In this document: one piece after another, positions 28,316-28,960 of the stretch
How positions within the stretch are numbered: the stretch's first letter is position 1
How the letters are laid out: every line of letters begins with the position of its first letter
Origin: a virus
Lineage: Duplodnaviria > Heunggongvirae > Uroviricota > Caudoviricetes
Direction: 5' to 3' (one strand)
DNA length: 31,461 nt
Virus record (IMG/VR): IMGVR_UViG_2778261696_000004
Coordinates: 1-31,461 of that record
Notes under the pieces: model-generated
The model's database searches: none
What the model was told of the DNA's origin: nothing
The model's input: the letters and a program-made list of their open reading frames with translations, nothing else
Translations under genes and position numbers: made by a program

Positions 28316-28494
28316 TTATTAACCTCATTACTGTTTGGGAAATAAGGTTGCGATGCCGGGTGCTTCCCGGTGTCCTTTAGCTGGTTATCCACCGTGGACG
28401 GGGAAATAAGGAGAAATAATGGACAGATATAACCATTTCCCCGCGTGCGCTTAGCCGCATTCACCGCAACGGAAAGAGCATTCCTGGTGGACCT

Positions 28495-28519
28495 GTAGAT
28501 TGGGATATGAACCCGTTAC
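28495..28519. repeat. 25-bp direct repeat copy 1 (GTAGATTGGGATATGAACCCGTTAC)
   Basis: Near-identical copy (1 mismatch) at 28775-28799; each contains a T-arm-like GGGTTCATATCCC on the minus strand. Confidence 0.7.
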
Positions 28520-28774
28520 AGGAGAATGCTCTTACCTGTTACGTGCTCCGTTTCGTGGAGCTAACGGCGGGTGATCGGGCCGCACCAGACTGGACTTATT
28601 TCAGCGTTATGCTCATGCCAGAGAATCAAACTGTGATGGTCGGTGCTGAACTCCGACACAGGGTTGTAGCAAGCCCCGCAAAGCGCGCACTACTGTAGTT
28701 GCGGCACATCAGCCTGTGCATTCACCACAATGTTGAGAACACTGGTTGTCACGCTGCAACGCAACATTTATTCG

Positions 28775-28799
28775 TAGATTGGGATATGACCCCGTTACG
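28775..28799. repeat. 25-bp direct repeat copy 2 (GTAGATTGGGATATGACCCCGTTAC)
   Basis: See copy 1. Flanked by inverted repeats 28727-28744 and 28800-28817 (CAATGTTGAGAACACTGG / CCAGTGTTCTCAACGTTG). Confidence 0.7.
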
Positions 28800-28960
28800 C
28801 CAGTGTTCTCAACGTTGTAGTGCCGGTTACGGTTCCGGCCAGGCCTCTTCCTCAACGGGGTGTTCTCCATACGGACTACCGTTTATTGGTCGTTCCTGCG
28901 GTTTATGTTGTGAAGCCAGATGCTTATCTTCTGGTTGCTTCAAAGAGCTGCACTTCATCA

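Follow-up and report, generated by a model that had tools for sequence, protein, structure and literature searches.

A series of imperfect repeats occupies the minus strand of a 31,461-nt stretch of viral DNA (IMG/VR record IMGVR_UViG_2778261696_000004; the window, below), around a pair of tRNA genes and upstream of tciA, the gene for a TerB-like protein. As judged from sequence comparison, these repeats are RNA hairpins, not genes or scars: they are conserved and strand-specific, and they are transcribed together with tRNAs within operon leaders that are not translated. The window is phage P1, to which it shows 99.7% identity (28317-29046 aligned to NC_005856 69502-70231), and the hairpin region corresponds in the P1 annotation to the untranslated leader, about 1.5 kb long, of the C1-controlled ban operon. 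We favor, with moderate confidence, a model in which the P1 units are RNase III-type processing stems of a widespread phage family of hairpin cassettes that display swappable heads. Processing hairpins in phage leaders are already known as a kind of element; the apparent novelty lies in the conserved scaffold with its swappable heads, in the tight linkage to phage tRNAs, and in a head that resembles part of the initiator tRNA.

The sequence-only reading of this region had described an imperfectly duplicated unit with inverted repeats flanking the second copy, and the repeats do stand where it placed them. A 25-mer, GTAGATTGGGATATGA(A/C)CCCGTTAC, occurs at 28495-28519 and 28774-28798 with 24 of 25 positions identical (two window matches at up to three mismatches, against 0.00 expected from 100 shuffles), and a 13-mer, GCATTCACC(G/A)CAA, begins at 28457 and again at 28718. 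The inverted repeat that brackets the second copy is also present, although its length of 17-18 bp was an underestimate: it extends over 23 nt (28723-28745 / 28800-28822, 91% complementary) and is the top short-range inverted repeat of the 31-kb window. The first copy likewise has an inverted repeat, absent from the earlier description, at 28471-28483 / 28524-28536 and extending to 28462-28545. The unit borders as originally drawn have to be abandoned, as each of them, read on the plus strand, takes in the 3' tail, the 3' arm and the head of a hairpin and nothing more, whereas the natural units are whole minus-strand hairpins. Both of the proposed units are real, but two are too few, with further members at 28959-29045 and 29404-29484.

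The four hairpin modules lie on the strand of trnA, trnT and tciA and are, as read, U4 (29484-29404), U3 (29045-28959), U2 (28822-28723) and U1 (28545-28462). Each is built on a conserved basal helix of about 20 bp, CACAAC-(A)-GGUAAGRGYAUU / ARURCYCUUACC-GUUGUG, that carries a variable apical head. The helix consists of a 6-bp outer segment (CACAAC/GUUGUG), an often bulged A and a 13-bp inner segment (GGUAAGRGYAUU/ARURCYCUUACC), and is followed by a 3' tail, RUGAAKGC. The 5'-arm pattern CACAACAGGTAAGRGC has four matches in the window, where 0.33 are expected; three are the minus-strand 5' arms of U1, U3 and U4, which match the family arms directly, and one is the complement of the U4 3' arm. 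All four units are predicted to be more stable on the minus than on the plus strand, with z-scores of -3.45 to -5.81 (folding free energies, dG, are in kcal/mol throughout).

In U1 (28462-28545, minus strand; dG -35.8 versus -30.3 on the plus strand; z -3.45), the helix CACGUAAC-A-GGUAAGAGCAUUC / GAAUGCUCUUUCC-GUUGCGGUG encloses a 40-nt head. The head hairpin, CCUGUAACGGGUUCAUAUCCCAAUCUACAGG (28492-28522, minus strand), has an outer stem, an AC/AAUC internal loop, a 3-bp GC stem and the loop UUCAUAU, which has the format of an anticodon loop reading CAU. U2 (28723-28822, minus strand; dG -49.3 versus -45.5; z -5.81) has a 23-bp basal helix, CACUACAACGUUGAGAACACUGG / CCAGUGUUCUCAACAUUGUGGUG, and a two-hairpin head that includes CGUAACGGGGUCAUAUCCCAAUCUACG (28773-28799, minus strand) with the loop GUCAUAU; its inner arm has diverged (GUUGAGAAC/GUUCUCAAC), while its outer boxes and tail are as in the other units. 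The two copies of the 25-mer are the complements of the U1 and U2 head hairpins, respectively. U3 (28959-29045, minus strand; dG -41.6 versus -34.4; z -3.59) starts 1 nt past the CCA end of trnT, and its head combines a D-arm-like hairpin (GCGA..GG..UCGC) with a T-arm-like hairpin, AGGGUUCGAAUCCCU, within which GGUUCGAAUCCC matches tRNA T arms. U4 (29404-29484, minus strand; CACAACAGGUAAGGGCGCUG / CAGCGUCCUUUCCUGUUGCG; dG -45.6 versus -32.9; z -5.35) lies upstream of trnA and overlaps an unannotated 46-amino-acid minus-strand open reading frame (ORF), 29322-29462, the counterpart of the JL22 hypothetical protein gp74. Searches for a tRNA cloverleaf in the units with ARAGORN and the Rfam tRNA model called trnA, trnT and trnI only, with nothing on U1-U3 at E <= 10 or on the U4 region at E <= 1, and Rfam at permissive E-values yielded no family for the units in the window, the long hairpins giving only miRNA-precursor-like chance matches.

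Two small hairpins accompany U2. One, GCACA-GGCUGA-UGUGC (28704-28719, minus strand), follows the unit and recurs after many family members with a conserved loop and compensatory changes in the stem (GCACA/UGUGC; UCGCA/UGCGA in D6; GCGCA/UGCGC elsewhere); combined with the boxA-like 3' arm, this hairpin makes for an arrangement like that of a nut site. The other, GCCGG-AACCGUAA-CCGGC (28822-28839, minus strand), leads into the U2 5' box and belongs to a recurrent module in which GCCGG-N7-9-CCGGC is followed by CACCACAAC.

The same scaffold recurs widely. We retrieved the family largely with patterns taken from the arms or the head, and a scan of IMG/VR with the 3' arm as the search pattern recovered more than 100 viral contigs in 97 distinct sequence contexts, with at least 24 head classes carried on essentially one set of arms. 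In 23 of 24 head classes, the transcript strand gives the better fold. Across 55 distinct arm sets and 20 helix positions we counted 941 Watson-Crick pairs, 77 G·U pairs, 28 A·C pairs, half of which (14) come from one single U2 position, and 54 other pairs. In an ungapped arm alignment (A1), eight pairs change on both sides, accounting for 85 cells as against 30.8 in shuffled alignments, none of 500 shuffles reaching 85, and pairing stands at 86%, compared with at most 55% when the partner is slid. The strand preference, the pair types and the covariation together indicate a selected RNA structure on the tRNA strand. Of the three origins offered in the sequence-only reading, small-RNA genes come closest, inasmuch as the units are structured RNA modules on the tRNA strand. 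A duplication scar is at odds with stem pairing that is kept by compensatory changes over at least 24 head classes and many phage lineages, and a protein-binding DNA array with the G·U asymmetry and the co-orientation with transcription, both of which indicate RNA.

The consensus unit matches 1512 of 5426 complete E. coli genomes (28%), at 1152 chromosomal and 901 plasmid places, as well as 225 phage records. Rfam 15 has no family that matches the units at gathering thresholds over 141 kb of diverse loci, GenBank and RefSeq records carry no feature annotated for the hairpin family, and in a literature search by sequence, P1 gene names and topic we found neither the family nor its modular heads and link to tRNAs described. 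The cryptic prophages DLP12 and Qin of E. coli K-12 contain no unit, so that K-12 RNase III data sets cannot be used for these hairpins. A general scan of genome contigs for CTTACCRTTGYGRTGAA gave only scattered chance matches in unrelated taxa, a result that is uninformative because the pattern holds about 31 bits and the collection 596 Gb. An arms-only covariance model (R1) produced partial, non-significant matches even to U1-U3, since it cannot bridge heads of 30-170 nt, and scripts that combine patterns with pairing were used instead.

Comparison among P1 relatives illustrates the modularity of the scaffold, in that the arms are kept while the sequence between or around them is swapped. 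JL22 carries a 196-bp insertion with an extra unit that has a different head, and in P7 and Ro157 this same head replaces that of U3. In D6 and P7, a tRNA-Ser gene is directly followed by a U1 with an unrelated head. SJ46 (locus L005, about 1650-1870, minus strand) has lost 261 bp through recombination of the two 25-nt head repeats, which fuses U2 to U1, and in Ro157 (L006) the 12-nt tip of the U1 head, GGGUUCAUAUCC, is gone.

The head shared by U1 and U2 is itself conserved. On the RNA strand it reads GUAACGGG(U/G)UCAUAUCCCAAUCUAC, and it folds so that an asymmetric internal loop (AC / AAUC) separates an outer stem from a stem of three G-C pairs, which closes the 7-nt loop N-UCAUA-N; GGGCUCAUAACCC is a variant of it. 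Another version, GUGACGGCCUCAUAAGCCAAUCCAC, was found in locus L070 through the arm pattern and not through the head, and has compensatory changes in both stems. Head pair 9/29 is A-U in eight distinct variants, G-C in nine and unpaired in two; pair 14/22 is G-C in 14, C-G in three and G·U in one; and pair 6/32 occurs as three pair types. At the head positions left free by the search pattern, pairing reaches 86% compared with 73% in shuffles, and none of 500 shuffles attains 86%. A head-based scan also revealed another large set of units, whose scaffold is a variant one (ACGCAACACACGAGAGCAUC / AGGUGCUCUCCUGUGUUGUGU). These stand directly behind intrinsic terminators; one example lies upstream of an rdgC-like gene.

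The apical part of this head resembles the anticodon arm of the initiator tRNA, of which three G-C pairs are the hallmark. U1 (GGG-UUCAUAU-CCC) and U2 (GGG-GUCAUAU-CCC) both have three G-C pairs, a 7-nt loop, U33, CAU and a purine at position 37; at positions 32 and 38, their loops depart from tRNA-fMet. The commonest head variant, CGGGCUCAUAACCC, is identical at 14 of 14 positions to E. coli metY positions 29-42 (three G-C pairs plus loop), and the family consensus GGG-CUCAUAA-CCC equals metY positions 29-41. The CAU triplet is present at no fewer than 119 loci in IMG/VR, with the first base changed at three loci, the second at three and the third at none, and the rare variants keep the anticodon-loop format: CUUAUAA (UAU; L317/L318), CUCCUAA (CCU; L319-L321) and GUGAUAU (GAU; L102). 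Several further head classes have T-loop hairpins. At 2138-2184 (plus strand) of locus L073, a unit head holds the whole of a type I hammerhead ribozyme core, which scores below the gathering threshold of Hammerhead_1 (24.7 bits, E 7e-4). The unit belongs to a lambdoid late leader, in which tR' stands on one side of it and a tRNA-Met(CAT) and the holin gene on the other. We also considered a Klebsiella-phage head as a tRNA-Asn anticodon arm and the D6 U1 head as a tRNA-Thr arm, and set both aside because the likeness was too weak (E 0.25-0.8).

The genomic context of the family ties it to tRNA genes and operon leaders. Among 312 units in 181 viral loci, 285 have a same-strand tRNA within 1.5 kb and only two an opposite-strand one, and 110 units start no more than 8 nt from a tRNA 3' end (Thr 74, Ser 19, Asn 17). 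Units without a tRNA are found just past an early promoter/repressor region or just past a terminator. The P1 units conform to this arrangement, lying in an untranslated leader on the same strand as the neighboring tRNAs and the operon. In lambdoid and P22-like prophages, units run in the direction of the late operon and occupy the stretch that separates the Q antiterminator gene from the holin gene. Lambda itself has a unit, the prototype of the family, at 44787-44868. It lies on the strand of the late transcript, directly past tR' (the terminator of the 6S RNA) and ahead of S; it is 94% identical to one family member, overlaps orf-64, and is more stable on the late strand (dG -34.3) than on the other (-27.2). 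Over 44787-44941 of lambda (901-1055 of locus L250), the 3' box GUUGUGCUG can also pair with a downstream CAGCACAAC, enclosing the sequence that forms the U1 head in D6 and P7. This arrangement suggests either alternative folds or modules permuted between the inside and the outside of a hairpin.

Two ORFs annotated on the opposite strand of P1 in GenBank, each with only a predicted promoter, run through the hairpins: upl (28507-28698, plus strand) and plp (28699-29076, plus strand). The sequence-only reading had doubted both, and they do lack coding-type conservation. It had held that identity to P1 with annotated, protein-like conserved genes would tell against it; the identity and the annotation of upl and plp hold, but the coding-type conservation does not. 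The start codon of upl, ATG, is formed by the complement of the loop triplet CAU of the U1 head, and Ro157 lacks it; plp runs antisense across U2 and U3 and then 30 nt into trnT. Among the 13 point substitutions in upl and plp (full-length P1-like variants, the swapped U3 head excluded), four fall at third codon positions, and neither ORF matches a Pfam family at its cut-off. In JL22, P7, D6, SJ46 and Ro157 the ORFs are interrupted, replaced or deleted, and the hairpin arms persist. PHROG families exist for Upl and for lambda orf-64; these matches only mirror the annotation of near-identical DNA. All three of orf-64, upl and plp overlap family hairpins and show no coding-type conservation, and on these comparative grounds we judge upl and plp to be spurious, probably artefacts of annotation. 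CRISPR interference (CRISPRi) directed at trnT, plp, upl and tciA-C leaves P1 plaquing unreduced, and lambda orf-64 is also non-essential (PMC10695390).

The model that we favor would work as follows. Host RNase III would cut the basal helices, which extend for about two turns; we infer this from the length and regularity of the helices, from their placement directly downstream of tRNA 3' ends and ahead of the first protein-coding gene, and from analogy with known substrates. A helix of about 20-23 bp is the size of an RNase III substrate, which requires about two turns (at least 20 bp), and the predicted helices of the units, supported by covariation, span 19-23 bp. An indirect lead comes from lambda, for which Daniels, Subbarao, Blattner and Lozeron (1988, Virology 167:568; reference 49 of PMC7547250) reportedly mapped sites of RNase III processing in the late leader RNA; these sites may lie in the hairpin at 44787-44868. 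Cleavage would free the tRNA that ends 0-8 nt upstream for 3' trimming, would give the downstream mRNA a processed 5' end, and would leave the head on a helix stub as a small, stable RNA. We speculate that the U1/U2 head, once freed, could act as a mimic or decoy for a factor that reads the anticodon arm of the initiator tRNA.

Several considerations weigh against this model. The conservation of the arm sequences and of the heads exceeds what RNase III needs, so that another factor may be the true ligand. The elements can be dispensed with in the laboratory, where P1 plaques no less well under CRISPRi at trnT, plp, upl and tciA (PMC10695390), and natural losses occur, as in the U2-U1 fusion of SJ46 and in Ro157, which is without the U1 head tip. 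Invariance at positions that belonged to a search pattern, such as those of the 3' arm, is no evidence, and the counts are not independent, because many of the sequences are close relatives of P1. In the global minimum-energy fold of the lambda leader the 3' box pairs with the downstream 5' box, and it is the local fold that gives the unit hairpin.

The alternative that deserves most attention is that the heads themselves are the point. The units would then be genes for small decoy or regulatory RNAs, with U1 and U2 copying the initiator anticodon arm so as to titrate a factor that reads it, such as MetRS, a VapC-type tRNA-fMet nuclease or the 30S P site with IF3; the basal helix would be only a scaffold, and RNase III would not be required. 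We regard this as a real, if minority, possibility. It would account for the covariation within the conserved head, the almost invariant CAU and the 14 of 14 match of the commonest variant to the metY anticodon arm, for other heads that look functional (the T-loop hairpins and the complete hammerhead core), and for a region that is non-essential in a laboratory host, as befits an accessory or anti-defense function. However, the candidate mimicry extends over 13-14 nt, most head classes resemble nothing known, and both the deviation of the P1 loops from tRNA-fMet at positions 32 and 38 and the loss of the tip in Ro157 sit awkwardly with it. A broader proposal would join such heads to the processing stems, as an undescribed modular RNA display system of temperate enterobacterial phages, lambda and P1 included, in which an RNase III-processed helix in the leaders of antiterminated operons presents interchangeable domains as decoys or regulators directed against host factors. 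The domains would comprise the initiator-tRNA anticodon-arm mimic, a tRNA-elbow or T-loop element, a hammerhead ribozyme and about 20 others, possible targets would be tRNA-targeting toxins and defense nucleases such as VapC, and the system would complement the interleaved phage tRNA genes. We consider this proposal doubtful.

The shuffling of modules could instead reflect elements that act as DNA, the inverted boxes CACAAC...GUUGUG with their bulged base and variable center serving as attC-like recombination sites or as linkers through which phages exchange tRNA and RNA modules. Heads are indeed swapped on constant arms, JL22 has its 196-bp extra unit and D6 and P7 their tRNA-Ser module, SJ46 recombined between repeated heads, and the architecture recalls integron attC sites, which are likewise imperfect hairpins with AAC...GTT ends, a bulged base and a variable terminal structure in co-oriented arrays. 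Nevertheless, the units show strand-specific G·U pairing on the transcribed strand, G·U exceeding A·C pairs by 77 to 28, and 23 of the 24 head classes fold better as transcripts. Identity with attC itself was rejected. The boxes (G)CACAAC ... GTTGYGR, set against RYYYAAC ... GTTRRRY, consistently violate two of the four degenerate positions, the R box GTTRRRY being replaced by GTTGYGR. The modules between the hairpins are tRNAs or short non-coding stretches, not ORF cassettes, and the annotated P1, lambda and prophage contexts that were inspected hold no integron integrase (IntI). Exchange at conserved arms requires only ordinary homologous recombination, and we think a DNA-level role improbable. 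Nut-like antitermination, in which the 3' arm would be a boxA and the small hairpin after it would be boxB-like, shielding the long untranslated leader from Rho, strikes us as very improbable. GUGCUCUUACC does include the 8-nt core of the lambda nutR boxA (CGCUCUUACA), many arms contain this core, a small conserved hairpin follows 12-13 nt further on, as in lambda nut sites, and the units sit in the leaders of antiterminated operons; GCUCUUUC of U1 is presumably an rrn-like boxA. In the units, however, the boxA-like stretch is paired within the 20-bp helix, whereas the boxA of nut (CGCUCUUA) is single-stranded and precedes a boxB hairpin to which an N protein binds. The core is missing from U2 (GUUCUCAAC) and U3 (ACCCUUACC) and is not kept in several further classes; P1 strings multiple units together within one leader, and it is not known to have an N protein. 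That upl and plp are real protein genes in which repeats occur by coincidence, or that the repeats represent a duplication scar or tRNA pseudogenes in decay, is scarcely credible. The annotation of Upl and Plp in P1 and some relatives, the PHROG families and the tRNA-like arm fragments in U3 speak for it. They are outweighed, in our judgment, by the missing Pfam matches and the four of 13 substitutions at third codon positions, by ORFs that are broken in five relatives (JL22, P7, D6, SJ46 and Ro157), by the antisense course of plp over trnT and a upl ATG in a hairpin loop that Ro157 has deleted, by the silence of ARAGORN and the Rfam tRNA model on the units, and by stems kept through compensatory change across distant phages.

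Known systems offer partial parallels to processing stems of this kind. RNase III hairpins release RNAs from precursors in several settings, including the rrn leader-trailer helices, the metY-nusA-infB hairpin 3' of tRNA-fMet and the R sites of T7 early RNA. As in the P1 family, a two-turn helix flanks a structured RNA or follows a tRNA, and T7 repeats such hairpins in one transcript; the family differs in that its cargo is only 30-170 nt and highly variable and its stem sequence is conserved across unrelated phages, and the metY trailer has no sequence similarity to the P1 units. The rrn leader-trailer helix is discussed in PMC10250234. The lambda late leader shares with P1 a long hairpin in an untranslated, antiterminated leader and carries a true sequence homologue; P1 differs in that its copies number four, carry other heads and are interspersed with tRNAs in the leader of the ban operon. 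Anticodon-arm mimics of tRNAs are found in mRNAs, the thrS operator being an example. There too a hairpin copies the anticodon stem-loop of one tRNA, which in the units is tRNA-fMet (GGG/CCC + CUCAUAA), but the candidate mimic of the units sits on a putative processing stem of phage leaders and not in a synthetase operator. YrlA and other long-stem RNAs likewise form a stem from their 5' and 3' ends beneath a T-loop- or D-loop-like head, as do U3 and the heads in L011, L018 and L109, whereas most unit heads are not tRNA-like; we know of no Ro/Rsr partner in the hosts of these phages. A Y RNA-like identity was rejected, the only match to Rfam YrlA (RF02553; 25.6 bits, gathering score 69) spanning the two real tRNAs and not the units.

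If these interpretations are correct, the ORFs long annotated in two model phages as upl and plp (P1) and orf-64 (lambda) are all artefacts that overlie conserved RNA structures. The RNA family, which stands unannotated in about 28% of complete E. coli genomes and in hundreds of phages, would then deserve a name and a covariance model. The combination of tRNA genes with flanking processing hairpins would provide a concrete model for how arrays of phage tRNAs and non-coding RNAs mature from operon leaders. The initiator-tRNA-like and other heads would become candidate phage counter-measures against tRNA-directed host toxins, a subject in which the focus so far has been on the phage tRNAs themselves.

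In the window, the minus-strand order of the ban leader and its surroundings is Pban/Op72, a dicF-like region with a terminator-like hairpin, U4, trnA, trnT, U3, U2, U1, tciA, tciB, tciC, trnI and ban. The terminator-like hairpin, GCCCAUCUUCGGGUGGGC followed by a U run (29673-29692, minus strand), lies within the dicF-like region between Pban/Op72 and the hairpin/tRNA array, so that the ban leader is laid out as the lambda late leader is, with a promoter, a short RNA, a terminator and hairpin units in succession. A search of the minus strand from the tRNAs to tciA revealed no terminator-like site. The genes trnA (29125-29200, minus strand; 29200-29125 as read) and trnT (29047-29122, minus strand; 29122-29047 as read) are co-transcribed with the units, a gap of about 730 nt separates trnT from tciA on that strand, and tciA (27890-28315, minus strand) is the first protein gene 3' of the hairpin array. 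Between U1 and the start of tciA is a structured leader (28349-28468, minus strand) that matches Rfam STnc100 below threshold (29.3 bits, gathering score 47, E 6e-4); similar leaders (GGUGAAUGCGGCUAAGCGC ... CACCGGGAGGCACCCGGCA) come after units in the unrelated prophages L088, L113 and L026.

The tRNA set of P1 (27540-27615 and 29047-29200, minus strand) comprises Asn(GUU), Thr(UGU) and Ile2(CAU), and P1 relatives have extra Tyr(GUA), Ser(UGA) and Arg(UCU) tRNAs within the same array. Asn and Thr tRNAs are reportedly among the targets of the PARIS defense nuclease. Just 3' of the terminator in the dicF-like region, 29572-29677 (minus strand) has a weak match to the Rfam family tmRNA_permuted (24.1 bits, E 0.009), for which ARAGORN makes no transfer-messenger RNA call; GCAAACGAUGAUCUGAUGAUGGUAGCGGCCUAA within it would read ANDDLMMVAA-stop, resembling the reading frame of the SsrA tag. 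At the other end of the window, positions 1-710 are GC-rich and contain several long imperfect inverted repeats (e.g. 493-519/616-642).

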